In this document: positions 4,316-63,081 of the stretch, one piece after another | Numbering within the stretch: position 1 is the first letter of the stretch | How the letters are laid out: the number at the start of each line of letters is the position of its first letter | Assembly: GCA_030610885.1 (NCBI GenBank) | Contig: JAUWQW010000001.1 | Location: 5,317-69,316, forward strand | DNA length: 64,000 bases | Direction of reading: 5' to 3' | Source of the DNA: Candidatus Aminicenantes bacterium | Lineage (GTDB): Bacteria; Acidobacteriota; Aminicenantia; UBA2199 | Notes under the pieces: generated by a model | What the model was told of the DNA's origin: nothing | Databases searched by the model: none | What the model saw: only the letters and a program-made list of their open reading frames with translations | Position numbers and translations under genes: made by a program

Positions 4316-4399
4316 AATATTTATATATATGTTTTTATCTAAAATTTCAATATTTTAATGAGTTGAATTCTTTTTTTTTTTAGTTTAAAATTACAATAA

Positions 4400-6082: not shown

Positions 6083-6144
6083 TTAATAAAATTGAGATTT
6101 TTTTTATTTTCTTTTATTTAATATATTAGTAAGGGAGGTGTTAA

Positions 6145-8481: not shown

Positions 8482-8573
8482 AATGTTGAATTCAAACTTA
8501 AATAAAAAAGTTATTTTAAAATTATGTTGAAAATTTTTATATATAATATAATTATATGATTAAGGGGGAAAAT

Positions 8574-10502: not shown

Positions 10503-10510
10503 GAGGAACT

Positions 10511-12523
10511 ATGAAAAAGATATTAATTGTATTATGCTTTTCTTTTCTATTTTTAAATTTGTACTCAATAGAAGTAACCCCAACAGCGCCTTATTATGTT
10601 GGGAATATATTAACTTTTAGCCCAACCAATCCAGGTTCATGGAAGGGTAGACCTGTAAGGTGGATTTTTGGAGATGGAAATTCAATGCAGGTAACAGGAA
10701 GTCAAAGTGTAACTCATTATTATAAAAATCCAGGAACATATACTGTAATGTTGGTAGATTTGACTGCTACCACGACTCCAAATCCAACACAAACACGTGT
10801 TATTACAATAGATGAGGATCGAAATATTCAGATCTCAACTTCCCAACCTTATGTTGGTCAACAGATTACTTTTACAGCTATTAATTTTAATACTCCTTCA
10901 GATATTTTTTGGGAAATGGGAGATGGTACTACTTATTCCAATCAAAGCAGTATAATTAATCACACATTTTCAAATGCAGGTACATATATTGTAAAAGCAT
11001 ATGACTGGAATGGAGACACAACAACAACACCTGTAACAATTACTGTAAATGTTACTCAACCTGCTCGTAGTATTCGTATTTATTATACTTCGCAAAGCCC
11101 AAGAGTTGATCAACCAATATGTTTTGAGGCACAAAATTTCATTACATCGAGCATAGACTGGAATTTTGGTGACGGGCATGTTGTATATGGAGGAAGCGTA
11201 AAACAGACACACAGATATCAAAATCCAGGTACTTTTACAGTCACTGCAAAGGAAAATTTAGCAACAGGTCAAGGGCTTATAACTACAAGCATTACAATTT
11301 TGCCAGAAAACAGATATATTACAGTTTCTTCGCCTGAAGTGCGTATAAATGAAGAGGTTGCAATAACTGTATATAATTTTAGAGGAGATTATATATGGTG
11401 GGATTTTGGAGATGGAACACAAAAATCAGGATTACATACAGAAAGATATACTTATAGAAGATCTGGAAATTTTACTATAACAGCTCAGGATGAAAACGGA
11501 GAGAGCCAGAAGAAATTTCAGGTAAATATTATTGTAAGAGGTATTGATGATATTGTTAATATTGGAATAGCAGAGATTAAACTGGATAATGGTAAGTATT
11601 ACAAAGTTATTCCAAAAAATTCTAAAAATATTCGTGCTGTTTTGAGGATGAAAATGAGGGGTACTGGTATTGTATCTGGATATTGGATTGTAGATGGTAA
11701 TCCATATGAGTTTTTTAATGAGGTTGCTCTACAGGGAGAGTTAAAAGAGATTTATACTAAAGATGTCCCGGGACTTCCTGTTTTAGAATCAGGGATACAT
11801 ACAATAACTGTAAAATTAACAAAACCAGTTGAAGTTCCAATAACATTCCCTGTATTAAAATATTTTGTGCTCCCTTATGAAAACAAAGTTGAAATTTTAT
11901 CTCCTGATGATGGATATGTGACAAAAGAAAAAGATATTCCAGAATTTTCATGGAAAGAGCCTAAAGGTGGTTCAAAGTATAAGATTGCCTTTTCAGACTA
12001 TTTGTATCCTATATTATATAACACTAATAGACTGAAATGGATCGATGTTAATGTAAAATTGAATTATAAACCGGAACCTGATGTTTGGAAGGACATTAAA
12101 CGAAACAGATGGACATATTGGAAAGTTAAGGCACTTGATAGTAACGAGAATATAATAGCTGAAAGTGACATTCAGGATATAAAGATTGTAATAGCTTCAG
12201 CAGAGATAAGTATTAGTAAGATTACAGATCTTGATGGAAATGAGATACAAATTAATAAGAATATAAATTCTGACAAAGAGGACATTTTAGTATACGGAAG
12301 TGTTAAATACAAGGGTGATTCAAAATATCTTATACTAAGGGTTTATGCAGATAATGAACTTGTAGATCAGCTTCTTTTTAGAGATGTAAAAAAGAATGAA
12401 GAGAGATTATTTGAAACCTCAATTCCAAATAAAAAGAAAGATACTAAAGTGATATTTCAAGTTCTTAACACATCTTCTCCATCAGTTATTATAGGTATAA
12501 AAAATCTGTTTCTAAAAAAATAG
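10511..12523 (+). CDS. secreted multi-PKD-domain protein (4 PKD repeats), paralog of the gene at 6145
   Basis: Signal peptide MKKILIVLCFSFLFLNLYS. A Shine-Dalgarno sequence AGGAGG lies upstream. PKD signatures are WIFGDGNS, WEMGDGTT, WNFGDGHV and WDFGDGTQ. The C-terminal module (DNGKYYKVIPK..GIVSGYWIVDG..LPVLESGIHT..WTYWKVKALDSNEN) matches the 6145 protein. Confidence 0.75.
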   Translation: MKKILIVLCFSFLFLNLYSIEVTPTAPYYVGNILTFSPTNPGSWKGRPVRWIFGDGNSMQVTGSQSVTHYYKNPGTYTVMLVDLTATTTPNPTQTRVITIDEDRNIQISTSQPYVGQQITFTAINFNTPSDIFWEMGDGTTYSNQSSIINHTFSNAGTYIVKAYDWNGDTTTTPVTITVNVTQPARSIRIYYTSQSPRVDQPICFEAQNFITSSIDWNFGDGHVVYGGSVKQTHRYQNPGTFTVTAKENLATGQGLITTSITILPENRYITVSSPEVRINEEVAITVYNFRGDYIWWDFGDGTQKSGLHTERYTYRRSGNFTITAQDENGESQKKFQVNIIVRGIDDIVNIGIAEIKLDNGKYYKVIPKNSKNIRAVLRMKMRGTGIVSGYWIVDGNPYEFFNEVALQGELKEIYTKDVPGLPVLESGIHTITVKLTKPVEVPITFPVLKYFVLPYENKVEILSPDDGYVTKEKDIPEFSWKEPKGGSKYKIAFSDYLYPILYNTNRLKWIDVNVKLNYKPEPDVWKDIKRNRWTYWKVKALDSNENIIAESDIQDIKIVIASAEISISKITDLDGNEIQINKNINSDKEDILVYGSVKYKGDSKYLILRVYADNELVDQLLFRDVKKNEERLFETSIPNKKKDTKVIFQVLNTSSPSVIIGIKNLFLKK

Positions 12524-46498: not shown

Positions 46499-47218
46499 AT
46501 GAAAAAAAATAAAATATTAATTATTATTCCCACTTTTAATGAATGTGGAAATATCAGTATTCTTATGAAACAGATCATTGAAACCGTTTCTAATATTGAT
46601 ATCTTAGTGATTGATGATGATTCCTTTGATGGAACTGCACAGGAAGTAATGGCTTTTTCAAAAGTTACTAAAACAAAAATTGATATTATTGTCCGAAAAG
46701 GAGTTCGAGGCCTTGGGACTGCATATACAACAGGATTCAAATATGGATTGAAGCATCAATATGATGTGATCATCACAATGGATGCAGATCTCTCTCATAA
46801 TCCAGATCATTTACCTGCTTTCCTGGATGCTATTGAGAAATATGATATAGTTGTAGGGTCGAGGTATATTAAACATGGTGGAACGATCAACTGGAGGATC
46901 CGCCGCATTTTATTAAGTTGGCTTGCCAATAAATTTGCCAGGTTTGTATTAGGACTGGGAGGACATGATCTAACATCAGGTTTTCGAGCTTATGGTAGAT
47001 CTATTCTTGAAACAATTGATCTGGATAAAATAAAGTCAAATGGATATTCTTATCTTGTTGAGATGCTTTTTCTTACAAAGAAAAGGGGTGCTCAGATCAC
47101 AGAAATCCCAATTATCTTTGTGGACCGCACAATGGGTAAATCAAAGATATCCAAGCAAGAGATATACAGGGGAGCCTTTACATTGTTGCGTCTCCGCTTT
47201 TTTAGTCATGAACGTTAA
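46499..47218 (+). CDS. GT2-family polyprenyl-phosphate sugar synthase (Dpm1-like dolichol/polyprenol-phosphate mannosyltransferase), soluble form
   Basis: ILIIIPTFNECGNI, DDDSFDGT and DADLSHNP are the GT-A DxD region. 239 aa with no TM segment, typical of a Dpm1/Ppm1 catalytic subunit. Confidence 0.75.
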   Translation: MKKNKILIIIPTFNECGNISILMKQIIETVSNIDILVIDDDSFDGTAQEVMAFSKVTKTKIDIIVRKGVRGLGTAYTTGFKYGLKHQYDVIITMDADLSHNPDHLPAFLDAIEKYDIVVGSRYIKHGGTINWRIRRILLSWLANKFARFVLGLGGHDLTSGFRAYGRSILETIDLDKIKSNGYSYLVEMLFLTKKRGAQITEIPIIFVDRTMGKSKISKQEIYRGAFTLLRLRFFSHER

Positions 47219-48125
47219 TCTAAAATTTGTCAGATGTCCGCTTTGTAATCATAATAACACCCGGCTTATCTATCCAGCAACATCAAAATCCAATCAAATA
47301 AAGCACAAAGACTCTTATATATGTACGAGCACAGGTTTATCAAATCATGGTGATATTGTTCAATGTAAGAACTGTAAAATGGTTTATAATAATCCTCAGC
47401 CAGATGCGGATCAATTGATAAATTTCTATAAAGAGGTTGTGGATCCATCCTATATACTACAGAGTAAAGGAAGGGAACTTACATTTAAACATACTATCAG
47501 TCAACTTCAAGAATACATGAAACCACCCGGGAATTTGCTTGATGTTGGATGTTATACTGGAATTTTTATGGAGACTGCAATTGCTTCAGGTTGGACAGTC
47601 TATGGTGTAGAATTGAGTTCATGGGCAGCATCAATTGCACAGAAATTGGGAAAAGGGGCTGTATTTGAGTGTGCTCTTGATCAGATCCAATTACATTCAT
47701 CCAGTATGGATGTAGTTACAATGTGGGATGTAATTGAACACCTTTCTAAACCAACACAAATTTTAAAAAAGGTTGCTTCTTTGCTCCGGCCAGGTGGTAT
47801 TTTGGCATTAAGTACATATATGATTGATAGTTGGGCAGTAAAAGTGCTTGGAAGAAGATATCCTTTTTTTATGGATATGCATGTTGTTCATTTTTCAAGA
47901 GATACTCTATCTCGTATGTTATGTATGTTGGGTTTTGAAATCCTAAGTATAAGAAAACATAAGCGTACGATTATACTGGATTATCTTTTGGACAGGACAT
48001 GGAATTTATTACCTGTGTTAAAACCAATGCTCAAACCTTTAGCTCGCTGTCAATTGATTAAAAAGCCAATAAATCTTAGCTTTATGGGACTTGTAAATGT
48101 CTATGCGCGCAAAAAAAATTCTTAA
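47208..48125 (+). CDS. class I SAM-dependent methyltransferase with N-terminal Cys4 zinc ribbon
   Basis: The zinc ribbon is CPLCNHNN...CKNCKM. The SAM-binding motif is LLDVGCYTGIFMETAIASGWTVYGVELS. Motif II is VVTMWDVIEHL. ATG 47208 overlaps the upstream GT2 gene by 11 nt. The track ORF from 47040 is an out-of-frame overlap artifact. Confidence 0.7.
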   Translation: MNVNLKFVRCPLCNHNNTRLIYPATSKSNQIKHKDSYICTSTGLSNHGDIVQCKNCKMVYNNPQPDADQLINFYKEVVDPSYILQSKGRELTFKHTISQLQEYMKPPGNLLDVGCYTGIFMETAIASGWTVYGVELSSWAASIAQKLGKGAVFECALDQIQLHSSSMDVVTMWDVIEHLSKPTQILKKVASLLRPGGILALSTYMIDSWAVKVLGRRYPFFMDMHVVHFSRDTLSRMLCMLGFEILSIRKHKRTIILDYLLDRTWNLLPVLKPMLKPLARCQLIKKPINLSFMGLVNVYARKKNS

Positions 48126-48209
48126 ATTTTTTAAAACATTTCTCTGAAACCCTGTACAATTAATAAATTCGTTTTGCTTTTATGGGAAAAATTTAATAGA
48201 ATTGTAAGT

Positions 48210-49481
48210 ATGAAAAAATTTTCAGTAGATCTTATTGAGGATAATTTTTTTCATGATTTCACTTATGATTCATATAATAGAAAAGAGTATATTTTTAAGA
48301 AAAAAACGGGAATATTAAAAAGAGAATATAATGAAAGCTGGCTTAGCAGTTCTTTTGAGTTAAACTCAATAAATGATGCAAAAGCATATATTTCAAAGGG
48401 TTTTAAATCTTCAAGTTTTAAAAACTTTAAAACCAATAACATTGAGTTTAGCCCAGGTAAAGTGTTAAGAGACAATGAATTTATTTTAAATTTTTTACGA
48501 TCACTTGATTTAAAAGAATGGAAGATCGTATTTAGAGTAAAGGCATTAAACCGCCTTATTATTAACAATAAAAATAAAGGATTGAGAAATGGATTTACAC
48601 ATTATAGTATTATAATAAAATTAAAATTAAATAACTGTAGAAATTACATTGAGATTGGAGAGGGATCAACTGGTAGCTTTAAATTCAATCAAACAGGGCT
48701 TAGCTTGAGAATAAAAGATGTGATTAATAATCATAATAATAAAATAAAAAATGATTTTAAGGATAGAATTCCAGTAATTCTGAACTCAGGTGATGGAGGT
48801 ATAATCTTTCATGAAATCCTTGGGCATTCATTAGAGGTTGATTATATTTATCAAAAGTTGTCTCCAATATCAATATATGATGTGGGACATCAAATAATAT
48901 CAAAAAATGTAAATTTAGTTGCTGATTACGAAGGAGATATGTTTTTCTCAAACAGAATGTGTGATGATGAAGGAGTATCCTCAAAATCTTCTATGTTAGT
49001 TGAGAATGGAATATTAAGGAACTTTATTTCAGACATTTATTATAAAAATCTGTTAAATATAAAAAATTCTGGTTATTCAAGGGTAGAAGATTTTTCAAAA
49101 GTTCCAATGCCGAGAATGTTTGCAATTTACTTAAAACCAGGCCCCTATAATGCTCAAGAGTTAATTGAATCAACAAAATATGGAATATATGCAAAAGAAT
49201 TTGGTGAGGGAAAAACTTATTTTAATAAAAATTCATTTTTCTTTAATATAAAAGAGGCATATTTGATTGAAAATGGTAAACTTACTTCTCCTCTTGGTGA
49301 TGTTATTGTGAAAGGAAATATTATGGAAACCTTAAACTCAGTTGATATGGTAGCTGATGATTTCAGATATGACAAGGGTATCAGTTATTGTTTCAAGAAT
49401 GGCCAGACATTAAATGTCAGGGTTGGTCAACCAACAGTTAAGATAAATAACCTTTTTGTTAAAAGTGGTTTAAATGATTGA
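48210..49481 (+). CDS. tldD: TldD-family metalloprotease
   Basis: TldD/PmbA fold with HExxxH (FHEILGHSLE) and the conserved GxC..DDEG region (MCDDEGVSS). An alternative TTG start lies at 48174. Confidence 0.7.
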   Translation: MKKFSVDLIEDNFFHDFTYDSYNRKEYIFKKKTGILKREYNESWLSSSFELNSINDAKAYISKGFKSSSFKNFKTNNIEFSPGKVLRDNEFILNFLRSLDLKEWKIVFRVKALNRLIINNKNKGLRNGFTHYSIIIKLKLNNCRNYIEIGEGSTGSFKFNQTGLSLRIKDVINNHNNKIKNDFKDRIPVILNSGDGGIIFHEILGHSLEVDYIYQKLSPISIYDVGHQIISKNVNLVADYEGDMFFSNRMCDDEGVSSKSSMLVENGILRNFISDIYYKNLLNIKNSGYSRVEDFSKVPMPRMFAIYLKPGPYNAQELIESTKYGIYAKEFGEGKTYFNKNSFFFNIKEAYLIENGKLTSPLGDVIVKGNIMETLNSVDMVADDFRYDKGISYCFKNGQTLNVRVGQPTVKINNLFVKSGLND

Positions 49482-50766
49482 GAAAATACTCTTACAAGGA
49501 AAAGCTGCCGGGTTTTCAACAGTTGAGGTTTTCCATGAAAAAAGGGAGAAACAGGAATATGAGAAACTTTTAGATTATAATGCTTCTCATTTCGTAAAGA
49601 ATGATAATATATCAGTCAGAGCTTTCTGGGAATTTGGAGAGCCTGTTGGATTTAATTTGTCAAAACCTGATATAAAATCAATTAAAACAGGATTTTCAAG
49701 TGTTTGTTCTTTAAATATTCCAGGAAGAAATAAAAATTATGCATATTTATTACCCTCACATGCTCAAAAAGTAAAGATAAATATTTTTGATGATTCTATA
49801 AAAAGCTTTGATATAAAGAAATTTGATGAGTTAGTAGAAAAGATCAAAGAAATTCTTGTATCTTTTCCAGGGCTTTCTCTAAAAAGAATTAAGTTTTTTA
49901 AAGTGTTAAAGAAATGTTATATTTCAAATACTAAATGGCTTAATGCTAAATATAAAAAAACAAATTTCAACCTGACTATTAATTTTGAATATAAAAATAA
50001 TTCAATTGAAATAAGTGAGAATGAGATCTATTTTAATCGAATAAATCCATTCAGAATGATTTCAAGAGCGTTTAATTTATTAAATTCTCTTACAGATAAT
50101 AATATACATATCAAAAAAGATTGTGCTTTAATATTTTCTCCTGAAGCATCTGTTTTTGTCTTAAGAGAGTTTTCTGATAATTTTTGTTTAAGCTTTGAAG
50201 GGAGTTTAAAAAAAATAAGTTTCCCATCAGTATTAAGTATTATTGAAAATCCTAATCTGGATTATCAGACTGGTTCTGTGCCGTTTGATGATGAAGGCGT
50301 TCAATCAGGAGAAAGATATTTAGTAAATAAGGGTGTTTTTTTGGATCGGATTTCAGATATAAAGAGAGCTTTTTACAACAAAAGAGCTTGTTCTACAGGT
50401 AATGGTTTTAGGAGTGATAAGTCAATATTTCCATTTCCAAGGTTTTCCAACTTTTTCATTAAACCTTCGGTTTTAAGTTTAAATAAATTAATGATGGATG
50501 CAGGAAAAGGTATTCTTGTTTCTTTAATTAAATTAAAAAATATTGAGAATGATGAATGGATGTTTTCTGCATATGGTTACAGGTTTGAAAATGGAGATAT
50601 CAATGAGCCTGTCCATTTTTACTTTAAAACCTCTTTTTTTTCATATTTTCTGAATATATTAAAAGTATCAAAAGAGATAAAATTTTTTAATATAAATTAT
50701 AATATTGGATCTCCATATTTGCTGGTTAATGCAAAGCATTTGTATGAAAGTGTTCTTCAAATTTAA
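49474..50766 (+). CDS. TldE/PmbA-family protein, partner of TldD
   Basis: Second TldD/PmbA-family paralog, lacking HExxxH. Conserved PFDDEGVQS region. It overlaps tldD by 8 nt, the usual TldD/TldE pairing. Confidence 0.6.
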   Translation: MIEKILLQGKAAGFSTVEVFHEKREKQEYEKLLDYNASHFVKNDNISVRAFWEFGEPVGFNLSKPDIKSIKTGFSSVCSLNIPGRNKNYAYLLPSHAQKVKINIFDDSIKSFDIKKFDELVEKIKEILVSFPGLSLKRIKFFKVLKKCYISNTKWLNAKYKKTNFNLTINFEYKNNSIEISENEIYFNRINPFRMISRAFNLLNSLTDNNIHIKKDCALIFSPEASVFVLREFSDNFCLSFEGSLKKISFPSVLSIIENPNLDYQTGSVPFDDEGVQSGERYLVNKGVFLDRISDIKRAFYNKRACSTGNGFRSDKSIFPFPRFSNFFIKPSVLSLNKLMMDAGKGILVSLIKLKNIENDEWMFSAYGYRFENGDINEPVHFYFKTSFFSYFLNILKVSKEIKFFNINYNIGSPYLLVNAKHLYESVLQI

Positions 50767-51991: not shown

Positions 51992-52028
51992 ACATTATAA
52001 GTGTAAAATTTAAAAAGGAGGTCTTTTT

Positions 52029-52493
52029 ATGAGAAAAATAATGAAAAGCAAAAAGGGTTTTACTTTGATTGAGCTGTTAATCGTTATTGCAATTATTGGT
52101 ATTATTGCAGCTATTGCTATTCCAAATCTATTAACTGCTCTTCAGAAAGCTAAACAGAAAGCAACAATGGGTGATATGAAATCTATTGGAACTGCTGTTG
52201 AGTCTTATATGACTGATAATTATTTGGCACCAGGTACTATTACTGACGCTGATATTACAGTTTTTTACATGAAAAAAATACCAATTTCAGATGGATGGGG
52301 TAATGGATGGAACTATACAAGAGGCGGAACAGCTTTCGATGAATATTCAATCGGTTCAGGTGGAAGAGACGGAAGTTTTGGCGGTTTTGGTCAGTTTCAG
52401 ACAGTACCTTACATTGTAAATACTCTGTCTGGTTTTGACAATGATATCATCTTTTCGAATGGAACTTATACTTTCGGTCCAAGAGTAAAATAA
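52029..52493 (+). CDS. prepilin-type N-terminal cleavage/methylation domain protein (type IV pilin or GspG-like major pseudopilin)
   Basis: Class III signal peptide MRKIMKSKKG|FTLIELLIVIAIIGIIAAIAIP, with Gly-1, Phe+1 and Glu+5. GspG-like LTALQKAKQKATMGDMKSIGTAVESYMTDNYLAP. No Cys residues. Strong Shine-Dalgarno sequence and its own terminator. Confidence 0.8.
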   Translation: MRKIMKSKKGFTLIELLIVIAIIGIIAAIAIPNLLTALQKAKQKATMGDMKSIGTAVESYMTDNYLAPGTITDADITVFYMKKIPISDGWGNGWNYTRGGTAFDEYSIGSGGRDGSFGGFGQFQTVPYIVNTLSGFDNDIIFSNGTYTFGPRVK

Positions 52494-52507
52494 TTTAAAA
52501 ATCCTTA

Positions 52508-53950
52508 ATGAAAAAAAGCAGCTGGATGATTGTTCCAGCTGCTTTTTTTTTTCTCTTTAATTTTTCTATAAGTTCATATAAAACTCTCTTTTTTTTACGT
52601 TTAATATATTTTCTCTTTTTGATTTTTCTCTTCTTTTTTTTAAGAAGATTCAATTTGAAAAGGATACTTATACCAATTGTCGGGGGAATTTCTCTAATTT
52701 TGTTTGTATATGGTATCCTTCAAAAATTTATTCTGTTTCCTTATTATTTAAGAAACTTAGGTAATGAAAATAATTTCTATTTCCAGGCTTTTAAAACAAG
52801 ATTGGAGACAGGAAGAGTTTTCTCATTGTTCACATTACCCTCTCTGTATGCAATTATATGTGCAGTATTGATCTTATTTATTTTTCACTATTTTTTAAAA
52901 TCAAAAAAAAATAAGATTTTTTGGGCTATATTATTAATTTTAGGTATAATCAATATAGTTTTAACCCAATCTTTTGGGGGAATCTTATATTTATCCATTG
53001 GTATTTTAATTTATCTCTTCTTATCAAGAATTTTAAGTTTCAAGTATCTTGCACCTGTTATTATGGTTTTATTTCTCTTTTTTTTCATAGTAACAGGATT
53101 AAGATATTCAGAGGCAAAAGAACTCGAACCTGTTAAATTAAGATTCTCAAACTGGAAACAGGCTTATAGAGCAATAAAATCAAGCCCCATTTTGGGAATA
53201 GGGCTTGGGAATTATGAATCAAAAATCTCTTATTTTACTTTTACCGGAGAGGCAAAGTCTGTTTATGCACATAATTTTTTCCTTCAGTTTATTTCAGAAC
53301 TGGGCGTAATTATTTCTCTTTTTATTTTACTGATTTTATTTTTGTCAAAAAAGAGGCTAAAACCTGAAAATTCTAACGAAAAGGTTTTGTATATTTCAGC
53401 TTTCATTATTATGTTAGTGTATAATTTAATTGATATTGGGTTTTATTTCTTTTCTGCTGGAATAATAACTGTTGTGCTTGTTTCTCAAATATATGAAAAA
53501 AAGAATAAAAAGTATAAACTAAACCTTGGTATTCTTATATTATTATCAATTTGTTTAATGGTGCAAACTTTTTCGGATAATTATCAAAAAAAAGCCAGTT
53601 TTCTTTTAAGTCAAAAGAGTTTTGAAGAAGCGGAAATTTATTATAAAAAGAGTCTTAAAATAAATCCATTTAATTTTAAATCTTTAACTGGTTTGGGAAA
53701 CATCAATTTCATTAAGAACAACTATTTGGAATCTGAAAAGTATCTAAATAGATCATTGAAACTATATCCGGATTCTGCTTTTGCTAATTACTTGAAGTCA
53801 AGGCTTGATTTTAAGAAGGAACACTTTTTGAATTCTTTATATCGCGCAAATTTAGCATTTAATAAAAACAGATTAAATTTTGAATACAAGAGGTGGTATG
53901 AGTTTATCAAGAATAATACACAAATTGAACTCAGTAAAACAGGAATTTGA
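52508..53950 (+). CDS. O-antigen ligase (Wzy_C) family membrane protein fused to C-terminal TPR repeats (candidate O-oligosaccharyltransferase)
   Basis: About 10 TM helices with the Wzy_C loop motif (YAHNFFLQFISELGVI). C-terminal TPR repeats (FEEAEIYYKKSLKINPFNFKSLTGLGNINFIKNNYLESEKYLNRSLKLYPDS). The annotated ATG 52508 lies inside the pilin terminator hairpin. The true start may be downstream, for example the in-frame TTG near 52661 (LKRILIPIVGG). Confidence 0.55.
   Translation: MKKSSWMIVPAAFFFLFNFSISSYKTLFFLRLIYFLFLIFLFFFLRRFNLKRILIPIVGGISLILFVYGILQKFILFPYYLRNLGNENNFYFQAFKTRLETGRVFSLFTLPSLYAIICAVLILFIFHYFLKSKKNKIFWAILLILGIINIVLTQSFGGILYLSIGILIYLFLSRILSFKYLAPVIMVLFLFFFIVTGLRYSEAKELEPVKLRFSNWKQAYRAIKSSPILGIGLGNYESKISYFTFTGEAKSVYAHNFFLQFISELGVIISLFILLILFLSKKRLKPENSNEKVLYISAFIIMLVYNLIDIGFYFFSAGIITVVLVSQIYEKKNKKYKLNLGILILLSICLMVQTFSDNYQKKASFLLSQKSFEEAEIYYKKSLKINPFNFKSLTGLGNINFIKNNYLESEKYLNRSLKLYPDSAFANYLKSRLDFKKEHFLNSLYRANLAFNKNRLNFEYKRWYEFIKNNTQIELSKTGI
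52517..52553 (+). terminator. rho-independent terminator after the pilin gene (bidirectional A-run/T-run flanks)
   Basis: AAAAAAA-AGCAGCTGG-atgattgtt-CCAGCTGCT-TTTTTTTTTTT. The 9-bp GC-rich stem is followed by 11 T. Confidence 0.75.
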
Positions 53951-55709
53951 ATTTTTTATAATTCTGAGTTGGATTCTTTTTTTTCCTAAAAAGGAATCTC
54001 TCTTCTATTTTTTGATATTTGCACTTTTAATTATTTTATTTTCTATTAGAAATATTTATTCAATCAAAAATATAGTAGAATCTTTATTTTTGTATGTTCT
54101 TGTATTTTTAAACTTATTATTCATAATCAGTATATTTTTTTCCTCATATAAACTCAAGTCAATTCTTCTGCTTTTAGACATTTTTCTTATTTGTATTTAT
54201 TTTGCATTATTTTTTTATGATAAAAATGATGAACAAAAATATTTCTTTTTGATTTTGTATTTAATATCTCTTTTTTCTATTATAAATATTCTTAATTATT
54301 CTTTTTCAATATTTGAGGAGAAAAATCTTTTTTTCTCAAATCCAATCATGCAGGGGCTTATTTCTGGTATTGGTTTGCTTATAGCTTTTTATTATATATT
54401 AAAAAGATTCGATTGGATTTTCTTTGTATTAATGATTTTAAATTTAGCAGGAGTTTTTGTTTCAGCCTCAAAAGCAGCTTTTATAGGAGTTGTGATTTTT
54501 TCTTTTGTATTGATCATTCTTAAAAGAAAGAGATTAATCCCTTTCTTAATAATCCTTATTATATTGACATTTATTATTCCAAATCCCATAAAAAATATGT
54601 TTGAGTTTTCATTAACAAAGGACCCATATGCTTTTAATAGGATCGATATATGGAAAATGTCTATAAATATTTTTAAAGATAATTTTTTGTATGGTGTAGG
54701 ACTCGGAAATTTTTCCGAGGTTTCAAAAAAATACAATTTTAAGCAAACAAAAGGACCTGCAAATTATTTCAAGGTTCCTCGAATTCCTCACAATGATTAT
54801 TTAAAGCTTTTGTGTGAAACAGGTATATTTGGATTGATAATTTTACTTCTATTTATATTTTTTATTTTAAGAAAGATATTTTCCTCTTCTTTATTTAATA
54901 TATCAAAAATAATAATCCTTTATTTATTATTTAATGCATTTTTGTTTAATATAATGTTTCATACATTTTTCTTTTTTATGTTTATCTTTTTGTTGAAAAA
55001 TTTATTCGAGGAAAATATTAGTTTTAAGAGTATAAACGGAAATTTTAAATTAATATTTTCACTTTTATTAATTTTTATTTTTTTAGTTGGCTATTTTGTC
55101 CCTTATATATCCAATAATTTAATTGAAAGGTCAAAAAAGAGTAAGAATATCATAGAAGCCTTCAAACTATTGAAGAGATCAGAGTATTTAAACCCTTTAG
55201 ATTATCGGGTATATTATCGCAAGTCTTTACTGCACTATAATTATTTTGAGAGAAAATCGGATCTGGATTCTTTTTCTTATGCTTTGAGAAATATAAAAAA
55301 AACTCAGATGTTGAATAAGCATTTTATTGAGTCTTATTTATTAGAATCTGATTTATATCTTGAGGTATTAAAAAAAGAACTTAAGTATATTTCTATGGAT
55401 AAGGAGATAATTGCTCCTTTAATTAAAGCTGAGTTTTATGCACCATTCGATCCATTCATTAAATTAAAAAAGGCTAAAATTTATTTTGAATTTAATAATA
55501 AAAATCTTGCAAAAAGAGAGGCTATAAAAGCTTTAGATATAGAACCGGAGTTTATTTCAGCCCTATATTTTCTTCACAATAGATTTAATTATTTTTCTGA
55601 TGAGGAAAAATTTAAAAATAGGATAGATAAAATTTTAGCTAAAGCTAAAAAATTAGATTATCAACATGGAACCTATTTGGATAATTTATTTAAGGTCCCA
55701 CAGAAATAA
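53898..55709 (+). CDS. second O-antigen ligase (Wzy_C) family membrane protein with C-terminal TPR-like region
   Basis: Polytopic, with the Wzy_C motif IPHNDYLKLLCETGIFGL. C-terminal TPR-like helical repeats (EAFKLLKRSEYLNPLDYRVYYRKSLLHYNYF..., AKREAIKALDIEPEFISALYFLHN). It overlaps the upstream paralog by about 50 nt. The start is uncertain (ATG 53898 or TTG 53880). Confidence 0.55.
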   Translation: MSLSRIIHKLNSVKQEFEFFIILSWILFFPKKESLFYFLIFALLIILFSIRNIYSIKNIVESLFLYVLVFLNLLFIISIFFSSYKLKSILLLLDIFLICIYFALFFYDKNDEQKYFFLILYLISLFSIINILNYSFSIFEEKNLFFSNPIMQGLISGIGLLIAFYYILKRFDWIFFVLMILNLAGVFVSASKAAFIGVVIFSFVLIILKRKRLIPFLIILIILTFIIPNPIKNMFEFSLTKDPYAFNRIDIWKMSINIFKDNFLYGVGLGNFSEVSKKYNFKQTKGPANYFKVPRIPHNDYLKLLCETGIFGLIILLLFIFFILRKIFSSSLFNISKIIILYLLFNAFLFNIMFHTFFFFMFIFLLKNLFEENISFKSINGNFKLIFSLLLIFIFLVGYFVPYISNNLIERSKKSKNIIEAFKLLKRSEYLNPLDYRVYYRKSLLHYNYFERKSDLDSFSYALRNIKKTQMLNKHFIESYLLESDLYLEVLKKELKYISMDKEIIAPLIKAEFYAPFDPFIKLKKAKIYFEFNNKNLAKREAIKALDIEPEFISALYFLHNRFNYFSDEEKFKNRIDKILAKAKKLDYQHGTYLDNLFKVPQK

Positions 55710-55735: not shown

Positions 55736-57484
55736 TTATTTGTGTTTAATATTTCTTTTGTTATGGTTAAGTTTTGAAATCTTTTTATATATTATTTTTA
55801 GTTTATCATTTGATTGTTCTTTTTTATAAATTTCTATTAAACAATAGTAAGAGGGGAGAAACTTAGGATTAATCTTGATTGTTGAATTAAAATCAGAGAT
55901 AGCCTGTTTAAAATTGCACTTGTCACTATATGCAATTGCTCTATTAAAGTAAGCTATAATATAATTTGGAGCAAGTTCTATAGCAGAACTATAATCTCTT
56001 ATTGCAAAATCCAGTTTGCTTTTCTTTGCATAAGCAAATCCACGATTATTAAATGCTTTTGCATATCTTGGATTTAACTCAATTGACTTATTATAATCTT
56101 TTATTGCCTTTTCATAATTGGCCTTATTACTGTATGCAAGGCCTCTATTATAAAAGGTTTCATAATTAGGGTGAATTTTTAGAGCCATACTAAAATCTGA
56201 AATAGCATTGTTTATATACCCTTTTTTTGCAAAAGCTGATCCTCTATTGTCATAAACAATATGAGTTGGGTAACTTTTAAGAGCATCATTCCATAATGTT
56301 ATATCATTTTTCCATACATGGCATTTTTGCCAGCTCAAGAAGGATAAAGTGAATAAGATTCCACTTAGAAATATTAACAATGGTATCCTTACTAACCATT
56401 TTTTCTTAAATTTTTTGTTAAATAAATCAATTAGTAATTTGCTTATTAAATAGAATATCCCAATAGAAGATATATAAGTATATCTGTCAGCATGTGGGAA
56501 ACCGTCTAATATAAGTGGGATTATTGGAATTAGCGTGATTAGTAAAAAAAGAAATCCAAAAATAAATTCTCTTCTGTATTTATTTGAAAAGTAGATTATA
56601 ATAATCAGAACAACTATTGTAAGAACAAAAACAGTAAGTGGGTTTGGGAAAATTTCATTAGCATGGATAGGATAACGTGGTGATAGCTTTAAAGGTAAAA
56701 ATATTTTGCTTAAATAAAAGGGTACACTAATTAAAACGTTTAAAATACGCTCTGAAATCGTTAAATATGTAGGTGGCTGGTCAATTTTCAGAACCCACAT
56801 TCCAATTATACCAAAGATAAATGAGATTTCAAAAAAGGGAACTTTTTCAATTATTTTTTTTTTATTTATATTTCCTTCAAAATAGAAATCAAAAAGTATT
56901 AATATTAAAGGGAAGATTACAGTTGTGATTTTCGATAATAAAGCAAATATAAAAATGATTAGACTAAAATAAAAAAAAATCCTTTTTTTTGGTTTTTCTC
57001 TATAAATCAGGTAAAGTATTAAAGCTATTAAAAGGAAAATTGAACTAATAAGGTCCTTTCTATCTGAAATCCATGCAACTGATTCTACACGCAGGGGGTG
57101 AACTCCCCAGAGAAGTGTTGTTAAAAGAGATATTGAATAGGATTTACTTAATATTAAAATTAGATAAAATATGAGTATACAATTAATGAGATGAAGAATA
57201 AGATTGTGTGTGTGATAAGGAAGGGGATTGAGATTGAAGAAATGAAATTCTACTGTGTGTGATAAAATTACTATTGGCATATAGAGCCCCAAAAATGTAG
57301 AAGTAAAAATATTTTTCAGGTTTTTAAACGAGAGTTCTCTTATTGATTGATTTTGTGTGACATAAGCCTGGTCATCCCAATTGAGAAAACCATTATTTAA
57401 TGATGGAAGAAAAACAAGAGTAGTTATTATCAATATAAAACAGATTGAAATCAACCTTTTTGTAGATGAGCTCATTTTTATCAT
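55736..57484 (-). CDS. TMTC-like protein: GT-C fold PMT/DUF1736-type membrane glycosyltransferase domain fused to C-terminal TPR repeats (candidate protein O-mannosyltransferase)
   Basis: N-terminal polytopic domain with DD in loop 1 (NGFLNWDDQAYVTQN) and YMPIVILSHTVEFHFFNLNPLPYHTHNLILHLINCILIFYL. Four or more C-terminal canonical TPRs (YDNRGSAFAKKGYINNAISDFSMALKIHPNYETFYNRGLAYSNKANYEKAIKDYNKSIELNPRYAKAFNNRGFAYAK...). Confidence 0.6.
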   Translation of the reverse strand: MIKMSSSTKRLISICFILIITTLVFLPSLNNGFLNWDDQAYVTQNQSIRELSFKNLKNIFTSTFLGLYMPIVILSHTVEFHFFNLNPLPYHTHNLILHLINCILIFYLILILSKSYSISLLTTLLWGVHPLRVESVAWISDRKDLISSIFLLIALILYLIYREKPKKRIFFYFSLIIFIFALLSKITTVIFPLILILFDFYFEGNINKKKIIEKVPFFEISFIFGIIGMWVLKIDQPPTYLTISERILNVLISVPFYLSKIFLPLKLSPRYPIHANEIFPNPLTVFVLTIVVLIIIIYFSNKYRREFIFGFLFLLITLIPIIPLILDGFPHADRYTYISSIGIFYLISKLLIDLFNKKFKKKWLVRIPLLIFLSGILFTLSFLSWQKCHVWKNDITLWNDALKSYPTHIVYDNRGSAFAKKGYINNAISDFSMALKIHPNYETFYNRGLAYSNKANYEKAIKDYNKSIELNPRYAKAFNNRGFAYAKKSKLDFAIRDYSSAIELAPNYIIAYFNRAIAYSDKCNFKQAISDFNSTIKINPKFLPSYYCLIEIYKKEQSNDKLKIIYKKISKLNHNKRNIKHK

Positions 57485-57566: not shown

Positions 57567-59423
57567 TTATTGGCTTATATAACTGATTTTAAAAACAAAG
57601 AGATTGTTTTTTCTGAAAATCGGTTTTAGAGTTCTTATAAAAGAGGAGAATTTTTTTAATTCATTTTCACTCATTCTTTTATAATCTTTTTGCAGGCGTA
57701 TGAATTCTCCCATATTAAATATAATGAAATTGATTTTGTCTTTTTTTAATTCATTAATAAATTCTTTTTTATTATTACTATTTTTTAAATATCTTTTCAA
57801 AATTGAGTAGTCATATGGAGAAGATACCTGATAGGCACGCTTTAGATAAAAGTTCCTGGATTCTCCCACAATAAGGATTTTTGACTCCTTTGTGGAGTTT
57901 TTATTGATAAAAGATATTGCAGGATAGGTTGGGAAGGTTAAAGTTTTGTATTCTTCAATGCTGAGCTTTCCTGAAAAGAGATAATATGAGCGAAAAATGC
58001 GCTCCATCAAAGCAAAAGATGTTAAGAGATTTAAAAATATAATGATAAAAAAGATATATTTTATGATCTTTTTTGATTGAGATTCATAAGCAATTACAAC
58101 ATATATTGATAGAAATAAAAAAGAAATATACCAGCAACGAATACTCATCTTAAAAAAAGCTCCCGCAAAAATCGTTAATAGAGAAAATATAAGTAAGAAG
58201 TAATTTTTTTCTTTTTTTAGTATAAGAAATGGTAAAAAAATCAAAAATAAAGCTCCAATAATTCCACCTGAGCCTAATTGGGAAAATGATATGTTGTAAG
58301 GGAATTTAATCACATCCTTGAAAGAGTGAAACACCTTGCTTGTATCTTTTGTCATTACAGCAGACCTTGAGGAATCCCAGAATTCACTTTTAAAAGAGTT
58401 GTGGAAAAATGGGAAAACGGGATTATTTGTAAAATTGTAATTTTTTATCATTAATGGCAATAGTATTCCTAAAACAATCAATCCGAAGATAATTGCTTTT
58501 TTTGAATCAAACCATTTTTCTTTTATAAATATGGCAATGAAAAAGATTCCCAGGGGAATTATATTTGTGTATTTCACACCTATACTGAAGCCCCAGAATA
58601 TAGCAGATATGTTCACCCTTTTTTTTAAAAAATATTTTATGCCAATAAAAATGAAAAACGCACTTAAAAGATCATTCTTAACTATTGATATAAGGAACAC
58701 ACTCATTGGCATAGAGATTATGGTTAATAATAATATGTTTCTTTTCTTTATTTTAAAATTTTCAATTGCAAAATCTATAATAGAAAATATTAAGATAATT
58801 CCTATAAAAAAGTGGAAAAAACGTGGGACCATATCTCCAGCAAAAACAGATGGTATTAATGAGATCTCATAATAGATAGAGGTGTTTGCGTATAAAAATT
58901 GTAGGGCTGAAATAAATCCCGAATTTTGAAGATAAAGGTTTGGTATTCCAAGGTGAAAAACTAAGGTGTCATAAAAAGAGGATGGAAGAGAAGCATATAT
59001 TAATGGGAAAACGAAAATAAGGTATTCAAGGGATGGTCTTTTAATAAAAGAATTTATTGTTTTATAAAAATTTGATTTATGATTTTTAATAATAAAAAAG
59101 AGAATTATTACTGGAATTAGATAAAAGAGTATAATTATCCAGGCTGAGAGAATTTTGAAGAATGATATTATAAAGAAGAAAAATGTTGTGAAAATTAATC
59201 CTGTGCCAAAGCTTTCTAATACTCCGATTTTTCCCTTATTAAAAAATTTTATAAAGAAAAAACCATAGATGAATATTTCAAAAATTAATAAAAGAGCCTT
59301 TAGAAAAGGAAGAATTACATAAATAGGGTATCTAAGGAAAAGTGCATTGATGGTTACTAAAATTGCAAAAATAATAAGAATATTTATTATAAATTTATTG
59401 GATTTGATATTATCAATATTCAT
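57567..59423 (-). CDS. large polytopic integral membrane protein, function unknown (possibly another GT-C-like enzyme)
   Basis: 618 aa with more than 12 hydrophobic segments across the whole length. I recognise no soluble domain. Co-oriented and closely spaced with the downstream radical SAM/GT2 genes. Confidence 0.4.
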   Translation of the reverse strand: MNIDNIKSNKFIINILIIFAILVTINALFLRYPIYVILPFLKALLLIFEIFIYGFFFIKFFNKGKIGVLESFGTGLIFTTFFFFIISFFKILSAWIIILFYLIPVIILFFIIKNHKSNFYKTINSFIKRPSLEYLIFVFPLIYASLPSSFYDTLVFHLGIPNLYLQNSGFISALQFLYANTSIYYEISLIPSVFAGDMVPRFFHFFIGIILIFSIIDFAIENFKIKKRNILLLTIISMPMSVFLISIVKNDLLSAFFIFIGIKYFLKKRVNISAIFWGFSIGVKYTNIIPLGIFFIAIFIKEKWFDSKKAIIFGLIVLGILLPLMIKNYNFTNNPVFPFFHNSFKSEFWDSSRSAVMTKDTSKVFHSFKDVIKFPYNISFSQLGSGGIIGALFLIFLPFLILKKEKNYFLLIFSLLTIFAGAFFKMSIRCWYISFLFLSIYVVIAYESQSKKIIKYIFFIIIFLNLLTSFALMERIFRSYYLFSGKLSIEEYKTLTFPTYPAISFINKNSTKESKILIVGESRNFYLKRAYQVSSPYDYSILKRYLKNSNNKKEFINELKKDKINFIIFNMGEFIRLQKDYKRMSENELKKFSSFIRTLKPIFRKNNLFVFKISYISQ

Positions 59424-59428: not shown

Positions 59429-60862
59429 CTATTTAGTTTTTCTCATAAAAATCACTTTAAGCCCTGCTTTTGTCTTTCTTTTAAATTCTCCAAAAGAGCT
59501 TACTTTGAACAGATTTTTAATTATATAGGAAGGCCTTGTGTAGAATGTTTTGTACCCTTTTATAAGGAGCTTTTCAAGCTCTTGTCTTGTGAAATTTTCT
59601 TCCCAGCATGGAGGTTCAAAATTTTCATCCGGGTTCTCAGCAAATTCTTTCCATACATCATTTTTAAAAACCCCTTTTGATAAACCCTGTATATAAATAT
59701 CTGTTGCAGGAAATGGAGTAAGTATGGTCATATGAACAAAATCAGGTTTTAACCATTTTGATACTCTGAAAGTTTCAAAAATATCTTCTATTGTTTCATC
59801 AGGAGAACCTATCATAAAGTAAGCTAAAGTCTGGATTTTATATTTTTTTGTGAGTACGAATATTTCTTTTGCTTTTTGTAATGTAATACCCTTTCTCAAA
59901 ACTTTGAGAATTTTTTCTGTTCCTGCTTCAATGCCATAATGTATTCCTCTACATCCCGCCTTTTTTAATAATTGCAATAATTCTTCATCAAGAGTATCGA
60001 CTCGAGCTCTTATATCAAAGCCAATATCAAGGTCTTTTTTTATTATTAATTCACATATTCTCTTTACTCTATCTTTTCTTACTGTAAAAGTGTCGTCATA
60101 AACTAAGAATTCATGTATTCCCAGTTTCAAACATTCCTCAATCTCTTGTACAACTCGTTCAGCACTCATTGCCCTGAATATGTTTCCAAGATGAGGTCTA
60201 TTGCAAAATGAGCATTTATATGGGCATCCTCTGCTTGTGAAAAGCGTTGTTATTGGTGTTCTTTTGGCTAAAATGGAGGTGTATTTTTTATATGGAGTTA
60301 ATTCTCTTTTTGGAAAAGGGAGTTTATCAAGTTCATTTTCAGGAATTAGTACAGGCAATCCTGTGTGTACTATTGTCCCATCCTTGTTCTTATATACAAG
60401 CCCTTTTATGTCCTTTAATTTTTTAAAATCATATATATTATCAATAAGTTTAGCAAATATCTTTTCACCTTCACCCAAAACCACGAAATCAACACCTTTG
60501 ATGTTTATAGTTTCTCTTGCATATATATTTACATGAGGTCCGCCAAGAACTAATTTACATTCAGGTTTTATCTTTTTTACAATATTTATGGTTTTTATAA
60601 CATCAATAAGTGTAAATGTCATTGCTGTTATTCCCACTACTTCAAAATCTGTGTGTTTTATTCTTTGTTCCAAAGAAGCATAGGTTAATTCTTCTACTTG
60701 AGAATCAATTACATATACTTTGTGTGCTGTTTTTTCGAGTAAATAACCTGCAAGGAATAAAAGCCCCAGAGGCGGATTGTATCCTCTTTCTGATTCTATT
60801 ATAGATGGGTTATTCCCCATTAATTCATTAAAAGAGGGTGGATTGATAAGTAATATATTCAT
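59429..60862 (-). CDS. B12-binding domain radical SAM protein (class B radical SAM, candidate methyltransferase/sugar-modifying enzyme)
   Basis: N-terminal cobalamin-binding Rossmann-like region (ILLINPP...PPLGLLFLAGYL), then a radical SAM core with LFTSRGCPYKCSFCN (CxxxCxxC). 477 aa. Confidence 0.8.
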   Translation of the reverse strand: MNILLINPPSFNELMGNNPSIIESERGYNPPLGLLFLAGYLLEKTAHKVYVIDSQVEELTYASLEQRIKHTDFEVVGITAMTFTLIDVIKTINIVKKIKPECKLVLGGPHVNIYARETINIKGVDFVVLGEGEKIFAKLIDNIYDFKKLKDIKGLVYKNKDGTIVHTGLPVLIPENELDKLPFPKRELTPYKKYTSILAKRTPITTLFTSRGCPYKCSFCNRPHLGNIFRAMSAERVVQEIEECLKLGIHEFLVYDDTFTVRKDRVKRICELIIKKDLDIGFDIRARVDTLDEELLQLLKKAGCRGIHYGIEAGTEKILKVLRKGITLQKAKEIFVLTKKYKIQTLAYFMIGSPDETIEDIFETFRVSKWLKPDFVHMTILTPFPATDIYIQGLSKGVFKNDVWKEFAENPDENFEPPCWEENFTRQELEKLLIKGYKTFYTRPSYIIKNLFKVSSFGEFKRKTKAGLKVIFMRKTK

Positions 60863-60873
60863 TTTATATGATG

Positions 60874-61737
60874 CTAATTGTTCCTTTTATTTATCATATC
60901 TGCAAGCATTCCTATAGCAAGTATTTGAATAGATGAGATAAAAAGTATTGAAACAGTTGTATCCAATATTTTGGGAAGAGCTAAATAGCTATATATAAAA
61001 ACTATTAAAGAGATTAAAAGCAAAATTAAGCTAACAGGAACAAATATTTTTAGAGGATTAAAATACATTACTGTTCTGATAATGAGTTGAATAAAGTTTA
61101 ATGTATCACGTATTGGTCTTATCTTACTTTTACCCTTTCTTTTCATGTAGTTTATTGGAATATATTTAATTTGCATATCATTGGTTAACATTGCAAGTGT
61201 TATTGTGGTTGTAAAGGAAAAACCATTTGGTAAGATTTTGAAAAATCTTAAAGCATCTTCTTTTTTAAAAAGCCTGAGCCCTGAATTTATGTCTGGAATT
61301 TTAAATCCAGCAAGGTAATTTGCTAATTTTCCTATAAACCATTTTGCTGGTTTCCTTATAATTGGGATTTTTACACTTTTCCCTGTCCTGGAACCTACAA
61401 CCATATCATAATTTTTGATTTTATTATACATTTCAGGAATCTTTTCTATTGGGTAAGTGCCGTCAGCATCAGTAATTGCAATTACATTATATTTACTTTT
61501 TTTAATTCCTGATTTTATGGATGCTCCATATCCCATATTTCGTTCATGTTCAATTAAATTGAAGTTTATCTTACTCTGTTTTAGAGTTTTGTTTGTATTA
61601 TCTGTTGAACCATCGTTAACAATAATAATTTCATAATTTTTTAGATCACTCTTTTTGAGAATAGTATCTATTTTGGTAATTGTTTTTTTTATATTTTTTT
61701 CTTCATTATAAACAGGTACTATTATTGATAAGCTCAA
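60874..61737 (-). CDS. GT2-family polyprenyl-phosphate glycosyltransferase (GtrB/ArnC/Dpm1-like) with C-terminal TM helices
   Basis: LSIIVPVYNEEKNI, VNDGSTDNT and DADGTYP are GT-A motifs. There are two C-terminal TM helices (LKIFVPVSLILLLISLIVFIY, ILFISSIQILAIGMLA), typical of membrane-anchored polyprenyl-P-sugar synthases. Confidence 0.8.
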   Translation of the reverse strand: MSLSIIVPVYNEEKNIKKTITKIDTILKKSDLKNYEIIIVNDGSTDNTNKTLKQSKINFNLIEHERNMGYGASIKSGIKKSKYNVIAITDADGTYPIEKIPEMYNKIKNYDMVVGSRTGKSVKIPIIRKPAKWFIGKLANYLAGFKIPDINSGLRLFKKEDALRFFKILPNGFSFTTTITLAMLTNDMQIKYIPINYMKRKGKSKIRPIRDTLNFIQLIIRTVMYFNPLKIFVPVSLILLLISLIVFIYSYLALPKILDTTVSILFISSIQILAIGMLADMINKRNN

Positions 61738-61782
61738 AAAAGCCTCCTTTTTTGTTGAAACTTCTTATAAATTTATTTAGAT

Positions 61783-62421
61783 CTATTCTATTACCCATCT
61801 AATTACCTCGAATGTTTCCGCAAAATCTGTTCCAATTTGAGTACCTCTTGTTTTTGCCCAACTTATAACAAAATCTTCTGTTGCATAGTGTTTGTCTTTT
61901 TGTGAATTGTATGCTTTTAAAGCAAAAACCTTTTTTTCTATATGCTTTTTATTAAGTTTAACAAACATATTCGTATGAAATGTAATGTTATTCCATGGAA
62001 GTTCATACCCCACAATGCTCACCTGTTTGAAAGCCCTTATACTTTCCATAGCAACTGTTTGATGATCTTGATGAAGGTCATTGGGAGATGGGATGAAAAC
62101 CAGGTCAGGTTTAATATCTCTTTTTATTTTGACTAATTCTTCTAAGATCTCCTGTCTGATATAATTTAATTTCCTGACCTCATAATTATAGATTATCAAG
62201 TTATTTTTTGGAATACCAAGGCGTTTTGTTGCCTCTTTTACCTCTGTTTTAAGAATATCTTTAGGCCATCCATGGGGAAGTGATTCTTCAGCAGTTGAAA
62301 ATGCAGTATAGTAAACCTGTTTGCCCTGTTCAATAAATTTTGATATTGTACCGCCACACCCGAATTCTCCATCATCTGTGTGTGGAGCTAAGATAAGAAT
62401 TCTTTTAAAACTTTCTTTCAT
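61783..62421 (-). CDS. PIG-L/LmbE-family N-acetylglucosaminyl deacetylase
   Basis: ILILAPHTDDGEFGCGGT and the HQDH zinc-binding region (DLHQDHQTVAM). 212 aa. Confidence 0.8.
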   Translation of the reverse strand: MKESFKRILILAPHTDDGEFGCGGTISKFIEQGKQVYYTAFSTAEESLPHGWPKDILKTEVKEATKRLGIPKNNLIIYNYEVRKLNYIRQEILEELVKIKRDIKPDLVFIPSPNDLHQDHQTVAMESIRAFKQVSIVGYELPWNNITFHTNMFVKLNKKHIEKKVFALKAYNSQKDKHYATEDFVISWAKTRGTQIGTDFAETFEVIRWVIE

Positions 62422-62448
62422 TTTTCCCCCAGAAATTTTTCATAATAA

Positions 62449-63078: not shown

Positions 63079-63081
63079 TTT

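Follow-up and report, generated by a model that had tools for sequence, protein, structure and literature searches.

A GspG-type pilin gene and two tandem Wzy_C-TPR membrane proteins form a conserved cassette and candidate pilin O-glycosylation system in Candidatus Aminicenantes

The DNA analyzed here is a stretch of 64,000 nucleotides (nt) from a Candidatus Aminicenantes contig (JAUWQW010000001.1). We call this whole stretch the window and give all coordinates as positions in it unless another locus is named. Its G+C content is ∼28%. On the + strand, at 52029–55709, lie three tightly packed open reading frames (ORFs), encoding a prepilin and two membrane proteins, A and B (Table 1), at the coordinates given by an earlier, sequence-only reading that had described a lone pilin gene followed by two ligase-family proteins. 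The pilin is indeed solitary within the window, its leader being the sole class III signal motif in six frames of the 64 kb. Its stop codon is separated from the ATG of A by 14 bp. The B frame is open from a TTG at 53880 (609 amino acids, aa), and the ATG at 53898 (603 aa) is the likely start because the closest B homologs are 601–603 aa long. From this ATG, B overlaps the 3′ end of A by 53 nt, which suggests that the two genes are translationally coupled.

The pilin leader, MRKIMKSKKG/FTLIELLIV, has Gly at −1, Phe at +1, and Glu at +5, as in class III signal peptides, with a hydrophobic N-terminal helix. Two Pfam models score above their gathering thresholds, N_methyl (E = 3.9e-10) and T2SSG (E = 8.9e-8; 32.6 bits, cutoff 21), and the GspG equivalog TIGR01710 scores 68.6 bits, under its cutoff of 88.85. 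In sequence matches to the PDB, Geobacter PilA-N aligns with the N-terminal helix (E = 1e-14) and GspG with residues 80–116. An alignment of 71 family members shows a typically shorter leader (MNKKG/FTLIELLIV) and a median identity to the window pilin of 90% in the N-terminal helix and 50% in the head. The head motif of the window pilin, DGWG...Y...D.YS.GS.GRDG, takes the form DxWG...Y...D.YS.xS.GRD across the family, a pattern that we take to resemble the GspG core. Identification of the pilin as the GspG of a gsp operon was ruled out, given the sub-cutoff TIGR01710 score and the absence of adjoining gsp genes in the window and in the 46 upstream-flanked loci described below.

A test for the C-terminal disulfide-bonded D-region of type IV pilins also failed, since Cys is absent from the window pilin and occurs at most once in most family members. 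The C terminus is instead a conserved tail, D-I-x-[FY]-S-N-G-x-[FY]-T-x-G-P-x-V-K-(R), which ends in GPRVK in the window. None of the 71 pilins ends in Ser or Thr; the last residue is nearly always Lys or Arg, and otherwise Gln, His, Asn, Ile, or Gly. Modification of the last residue in the manner of TfpO or TfpM, which the sequence-only reading had judged unlikely from the window pilin, is thereby excluded. Conserved hydroxyl residues are found in the helix (T46, S52, T55, S59, and T62), in the putative Ca-loop region (S107 and S110), and in the tail (S143, 96%; T148, 72%).

Both A and B match the Pfam family Wzy_C (PF04932; cutoff 31.7 bits), with 57.6 bits (E = 1.7e-15) and 74.7 bits (E = 8.6e-21), respectively. 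A is a membrane enzyme with 11 predicted transmembrane (TM) helices, and its catalytic loop (aa ∼199–256, including R212, R221, and H255) is predicted to be periplasmic, as is established for this loop in WaaL and PglL. Across 44 aligned A sequences, R199, E202, R212, R221, G230/232/234 (GxGxGNY), H255, N256, and D309 are invariant; the same holds for K192, R248, W252, H298, D300, and E307 in 50 B orthologs. Profile alignment of A with B (hhalign; probability 98.5%, E = 1.6e-15, 22% identity) spans the membrane core, the catalytic loop, the last helix, and the first TPRs, and on this evidence the two proteins are distant paralogs.

The sole solved relative found with the B profile in the PDB is an O-antigen ligase, WaaL of Cupriavidus metallidurans (CmWaaL; 7TPG; E = 4.5e-8). 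K192, R248, and H298 of B align with R191, R265, and H313 of CmWaaL, and R212 and H255 of A align in turn with R248 and H298 of B by hhalign. In E. coli WaaL (EcWaaL), R215, R288, and H338 are reported to be essential, and R224, R298, and H349 are conserved in PglL (PMC3643930); the equivalent His is essential in TfpM (PMC9829042). Pfam scores, invariant residues, hhalign, and the WaaL alignment thus bear out the proposed Wzy_C membership with periplasmic His and Arg residues. On these alignments A and B keep the Arg/His pair of the large periplasmic loop that marks the superfamily, and catalysis is predicted for both.

The sequence-only reading also had both enzymes ending in TPR arrays. For A this is visible in Pfam (TPR_1, TPR_2, and TPR_8 over aa 358–422), and its AlphaFold2 (AF2) model (predicted local distance difference test score, pLDDT, 87.3; predicted template-modeling score, pTM, 0.85) has three C-terminal TPR repeats. 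These superpose on three-repeat peptide-binding modules such as CTPR3, CHIP, HOP, and SGT (Foldseek TMt 0.8–0.87), and a profile of the domain matches consensus TPR and the TPR domain of O-GlcNAc transferase (OGT) in the PDB. B has no Pfam TPR match, but its AF2 model (pLDDT 92.6; pTM 0.89) contains ∼5 degenerate repeats in the C-terminal ∼185 aa, for which Foldseek returns MamA (TMt 0.75) and the OGT TPR domain at E values of 8e-5 to 1e-3. The B profile also matches TPR proteins, and the B ortholog of a Fischerbacteria metagenome-assembled genome (MAG) has ordinary Pfam TPR matches. The claim therefore stands for A by Pfam and for B by model, structure search, and profiles, although the array of B is invisible to Pfam. 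The arrays measure ∼120 aa in A and ∼185 aa in B. In both proteins the catalytic loop is followed by three helices, a Lys-rich loop, and one extra, last TM helix (337–358 in A; 381–409 in B), and every predicted cytoplasmic loop is rich in Lys or Arg. By helix count from the catalytic loop and by the positive-inside rule, both arrays would share the periplasmic side of the membrane with that loop.

Homologs of A (45–60% identity, 480–540 aa) are mostly labeled Candidatus Aminicenantes or Acidobacteriota. With one genome per species scanned, 64 loci were recovered, 50 of which have an A ortholog and are mostly labeled Aminicenantes (MAGs) or Acidobacteria. Directly upstream of A, one to three pilin orthologs, 39–67% identical to the window pilin, are present in all upstream-flanked loci (46/46), and B lies directly downstream on the same strand in all downstream-flanked loci (49/49), an adjacency far beyond chance. 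The trio extends to divergent members in which A is 29–35% identical and to the Fischerbacteria MAG. The pilin ortholog is never part of a gsp operon and always adjoins both ligases, so the cassette withstands the suspicion that its pilin belongs to a secretion operon lacking a ligase neighbor.

The surroundings of the trio change. In three genomes examined, the order pilin(s)-A-B is kept among genes unlike those of the window, and the upstream flank is prs-rplY-rpsF-rpsR-rplI-dnaB in these genomes versus an NMO gene in the window. A larger conserved operon was considered and rejected, as clustering of flanking ORFs gave no further gene common to all loci. Many loci have a second pilin paralog directly downstream of B, which the window does not; in L005 and L006 a 431-aa protein without a Pfam family precedes it. 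The distant locus L061 (1663–9988), from a MAG labeled Clostridia, encodes an A-like and B-like Wzy_C pair with TPR-like C termini directly downstream of pilM-pilN-pilO-(unknown)-pilQ and a small lipoprotein-like ORF; the pilQ product is a secretin that includes an AMIN domain. The stretch between these pil genes and the pair contains no pilin gene. The arrangement suggests that the enzyme clade is tied to type IVa pilus genes rather than to the type II secretion system.

A terminator scan found a hairpin at 52510–52550, in which an A-tract leads into a 17-bp stem with a 7-nt loop, followed by a T-run; folding gives dG −24.9 and z −5.0. The hairpin overlaps codons 2–17 of A, and its stem arms encode KKSSW and PAAFF. 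It is present 3′ of the pilin gene in 47/47 distinct orthologous loci, with stems wholly replaced in divergent loci, and in some it is seemingly intergenic, not coding. Across 23 sequences, 98.3% of stem cells are paired, and compensatory double changes occur in 10 of the 11 pairs. None of 500 shuffles matches the observed values, and slid registers are only 27%–68% paired. Compensation is visible even at the protein level, where, for example, S4N is paired with A12V in the A proteins of L015 and L017.

Gene A has no Shine-Dalgarno sequence comparable to the AAGGAGG of the pilin. Promoter prediction was uninformative (34 sites versus 26 expected), and Rfam and tRNA scans of the window returned no matches. 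We read the hairpin as an intrinsic terminator at which most pilin transcripts would end while a fraction would read through to A and B. Because it overlaps the 5′ end of A, transcripts from the pilin promoter should reach A and B only by read-through. The pilin would then be abundant and the enzymes held at read-through level, a layout that fits an abundant structural subunit with catalytic accessory proteins encoded downstream. The hairpin would be a clean case of an intrinsic terminator lying within the first codons of the next gene and setting the stoichiometry of substrate to enzyme.

Known systems provide several partial parallels. The pilin-adjacent Wzy_C enzymes characterized so far, TfpO, TfpM, and PglS, all modify the neighboring pilin, TfpO and TfpM being encoded directly downstream of it (PMC9829042). 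The cassette resembles those of TfpO (PilO; P. aeruginosa group I and Acinetobacter) and TfpM (Moraxellaceae) in having a Wzy_C gene directly downstream of, and co-oriented with, the pilin gene, and A and B share the conserved His that is essential in TfpO and TfpM, which use undecaprenyl-pyrophosphate-linked glycan as donor (PMC9829042). TfpO and TfpM are, however, 420–470 aa long without a large C-terminal domain, whereas here there are two enzymes, of 480 and 603 aa, with TPR arrays; and they modify a C-terminal Ser or Thr, a terminus absent from all 71 family pilins. Membership of the TfpO/TfpM group was rejected on enzyme size and domain content and on the pilin terminus, the adjacency being shared.

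PglS (A. baylyi, next to comP) and PglL (Neisseria) likewise combine a Wzy_C core with a larger C-terminal periplasmic region, which has been suggested to recognize internal sequons (PMC9829042), and 21 of 31 PglL homologs lie next to pilin genes (PMC3643930). Unlike these enzymes, A and B belong to other sequence families and form a tandem paralog pair in all recovered loci. Membership of the PglL family, by the criterion of Schulz et al. (2013), was rejected, as neither protein gives a PF15864 signal. Set against PglS by description rather than by sequence, the cassette gives a mixed picture, with pilin adjacency and a C-terminal domain on one side and different protein sizes on the other.

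The sequence-only reading presented the TPR fusion as one not seen described for TfpO, PglL, or WaaL; a claim that it is undescribed for this class of enzyme is not supported. A review attributes a C-terminal TPR motif beside Wzy_C to the S-layer O-oligosaccharyltransferase WsfB and to PglL, and describes WsaB as preceded by a small TPR protein, WsaA (PMC2943079). WsfB (Paenibacillus alvei) and WsaB-WsaA (Geobacillus stearothermophilus) thus combine Wzy_C with TPRs and a protein acceptor, in WsfB within one protein and in WsaB through the product of the gene just upstream. In contrast to the cassette, these are Gram-positive systems with an S-layer acceptor, encoded within an S-layer glycan cluster. 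In P. aeruginosa group IV, the gene directly after pilA encodes TfpW, a polytopic pilin glycosylase whose large C-terminal TPR domain was found by experiment to be periplasmic (bioRxiv 10.1101/2020.04.19.049825); its fold is GT-C and its donor is polyprenyl-phosphate-arabinofuranose, whereas A and B have the Wzy_C fold. WaaL, with which B shares aligned catalytic residues, lacks a TPR domain and a link to pilin genes, and its acceptor is lipid A-core.

The fusion is therefore not new in kind. The novelty lies in the combination, kept in 50/50 recovered loci: the Wzy_C core bears full TPR arrays, the enzymes come as an obligate tandem pair, a terminator is embedded in coding sequence, and the GspG-type pilin is Cys-free with no C-terminal Ser or Thr. 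Lacking defining features of TfpO/TfpM, PglL, WaaL, and Wzy, the cassette can be filed only under the Wzy_C superfamily.

Our preferred interpretation, in which we place moderate confidence and which draws on analogy with these systems, is that the cassette would be dedicated to O-glycosylation of its pilin from undecaprenyl-pyrophosphate-linked glycans. It is favored by the Wzy_C domains with invariant Arg and His, the strict synteny amid changing flanks, the coupling through the terminator, the precedents for pilin-adjacent Wzy_C enzymes and for TPRs, the predicted topology, and the L061 pair beside pil genes. In such a scheme, the pilin would be translated from its strong ribosome-binding site, while the hairpin would stop most transcripts and leave A and B to be reached by read-through alone, keeping substrate abundant and enzymes scarce. 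The processed pilin would sit in the inner membrane and expose its GspG-like head to the periplasm, where A and/or B may bind it through their TPR arrays, acting as acceptor-recognition modules. At the Arg/His site, a preassembled glycan would then pass en bloc from its undecaprenyl-pyrophosphate carrier to a pilin Ser, Thr, or Tyr, before the pilin assembles into a filament. The two paralogs might differ in glycan or site, or act as a translationally coupled pair or heteromer.

Several observations weigh against dedicated pilin glycosylation. The pilin alignment assigns no acceptor residue: its conserved Ser and Thr lie in the helix, the putative Ca-loop region, and the tail, and T148 of the tail occurs in just 72% of the family. 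The Lys at position 192 of B, equivalent to CmWaaL R191 and EcWaaL R215, has no basic counterpart in A. Wzy_C on its own does not separate oligosaccharyltransferases from WaaL ligases or Wzy polymerases (PMC3643930), and more specific models give no help: PglL_A (PF15864) has no match to the TM cores of A and B up to E = 10 or to the full proteins up to E = 0.01, and curated NCBIfam ligase and oligosaccharyltransferase families match neither. Among window ORFs of at least 100 aa there is no pil or gsp assembly gene, no initiating phosphoglycosyltransferase, and no Wzx flippase, and pilus assembly genes are absent within ±10 kb of the cassette in three other genomes.

It is possible, if unlikely, that A and B are general, PglL-like protein O-oligosaccharyltransferases that recruit many periplasmic or surface targets through their TPRs, the pilin being one of these or the most abundant. 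PglL-type enzymes are general and yet often encoded beside pilin genes (PMC3643930), TPR arrays are generic protein-binding modules, and the locus and its relatives carry further TPR-bearing membrane glycosyltransferase-like genes. Strict adjacency (46/46) and read-through coupling to a single pilin gene instead favor a dedicated relationship, and the PglL_A motif is not found in A or B.

We think it rather improbable that A and B pair a Wzy-like polymerase with a WaaL-like ligase, or are both ligases, and serve a surface polysaccharide or lipopolysaccharide (LPS) O-antigen, with TPR domains that dock on export or chain-length machinery and a pilin that is co-regulated and not an acceptor. Known WaaL enzymes are ∼400 aa long and have no extra domain, which counts against this explanation; in its favor, Wzy_C includes WaaL and some Wzy proteins, the only solved relative of B is a WaaL, and glycan genes lie nearby in the window (two GT2, PIG-L, WbqC, methyltransferases, and a B12-radical SAM gene). 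TPR motifs also occur in polysaccharide export scaffolds, according to a reference within PMC2943079. The glycan-type neighbors vary across genomes, however, while the pilin is constant, and for this reason a reading of A or B as a WaaL of an LPS core or O-antigen locus was rejected. A Wzy in an O-antigen cluster was rejected as well, since no Polysacc_synt, MatE, Wzz, or Bac_transf match occurs in window ORFs of at least 100 aa. In the window, A and B have no wzx, wzz, or initiating transferase next to them, and the refuting case named by the sequence-only reading, a place inside a complete O-antigen locus, does not apply; Schulz et al. take a position outside LPS loci as a mark of oligosaccharyltransferases (PMC3643930).

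More speculative, and in our judgment doubtful, is a fifth class of bacterial O-oligosaccharyltransferase, composed of a Wzy_C core, an extra TM helix, and a periplasmic TPR reader and always acting as a two-paralog relay, in which one enzyme (e.g., B) would build or select a polymer and the other would load it onto the GspG-type pilin through the tail SNGxFTxGPxVK. The product would then be a glycan-sheathed filament or a pilin-anchored polysaccharide, not a simple decoration. Least credible, and very improbable, is a pseudopilin of a secretion or endopilus system for which A and B serve as structural or assembly partners, TPR scaffolds on a non-catalytic Wzy_C fold: the GspG-like head and a pilin conserved at least as well as the enzymes (median head identity 50%) would suit it, but Arg and His are invariant in 44 A and 50 B sequences, unexpected for a dead enzyme, and no locus has gsp genes nearby.

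Pilin-adjacent O-linking oligosaccharyltransferases (TfpO, PglS, and TfpM) serve as tools for bioconjugate vaccines, and new classes have widened the range of glycans and sequons (PMC9829042). If it glycosylates its pilin, the cassette would represent a class of its own, found in a lineage that is uncultured and widespread in the environment. Its likely acceptor module, the TPR array, is modular and in principle engineerable, and its natural acceptor would be small, Cys-free, and devoid of a C-terminal Ser or Thr. A literature search on pili of Aminicenantes yielded nothing relevant, and the cassette gives a testable prediction about the cell surface of a lineage without culture-based biology.

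Table 1. Positions of the cassette features, a neighboring gene, and second pilins downstream of B in other loci
Feature	Position	Strand	Description
Shine-Dalgarno AAGGAGG	52015..52021	+	7 nt before pilin ATG; read from sequence
Prepilin gene	52029..52493	+	154 aa; Pfam N_methyl and T2SSG
Gene A	52508..53950	+	480 aa; Pfam Wzy_C and TPR
Intrinsic-terminator-type hairpin and T-run	52510..52558	+	terminator scan, folding, covariation
TPR domain of A	53579..53938	+	aa 358–477; Pfam TPR_1/2/8; predicted periplasmic
Gene B	53898..55709	+	603 aa; Pfam Wzy_C
Degenerate TPR array of B	55149..55691	+	aa ∼418–598, ∼5 repeats; Foldseek and profiles; predicted periplasmic
Neighbor gene C	55736..57484	-	582 aa; polytopic N-terminal domain and C-terminal TPRs
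Region with second pilin, L005	13525..15283
Second pilin, L011	11302..11832
Second pilin, L012	8421..8960
Second pilin, L019, L022–24, L026, L027, L035, L037, L043	about 11250..11800

Downstream of the cassette, gene C matches only TPR in Pfam. In its N-terminal domain, WDD occurs in loop 1, accompanied by a conserved PLHxENxAWxSGRxDL stretch and by LSKE; the domain finds no match in Pfam or the PDB, even as a six-sequence profile. There are 931 homologs of this domain; among those listed, nearly all also have TPR domains, several are labeled PF13231 PMT_2 or PF02366 PMT, and one is named “phospholipid carrier-dependent glycosyltransferase.” These labels, and an architecture like that of TfpW and TMTC, make C a probable GT-C glycosyltransferase that depends on a lipid carrier. 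Genes resembling C occur after the second pilin in L011 and L012 and after B in L053; C is possibly associated with the cassette, outside its conserved core.

A 516-aa ORF at 44925–46475 (+), polytopic, without a Pfam family, and with a GDD motif, shares the N-terminal domain of gene C without the TPRs and is 26% identical to the C-like protein of L011. A 516-aa gene also occurs near the cassette in other genomes; it weakly matches TMEM260_N in L005 and L006 and is unannotated in L002, and the window ORF has no BLAST match in these three loci. Another polytopic protein without a Pfam family, of 618 aa, is encoded at 57567–59423 (−) and weakly matches the NCBIfam LIC_10190 family (40.9 bits, cutoff 100).

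Glycan-type genes flank the cassette on both sides, as a GT2 and a methyltransferase gene upstream (46499–48125, +) and, downstream (59429–63801, −), genes for a B12-binding radical SAM protein, a GT2, a PIG-L deacetylase, a methyltransferase, and WbqC. The conservation of the cassette does not extend to these genes; L002 has a homologous radical SAM enzyme and a methyltransferase near its own copy. A TldD/PmbA-like metallopeptidase pair (PmbA_TldD_3rd) occupies 48174–50766 (+), between the glycosyltransferase genes and the pilin cassette. Far upstream, the region 2654–12523 encodes a TPR protein, a sigma-70-like fragment, and a small ORF on the − strand, and a CHAT-domain protein and three large proteins, two of them with PKD and BiPBP_C domains, on the + strand; it may be a surface-protein or protease module.

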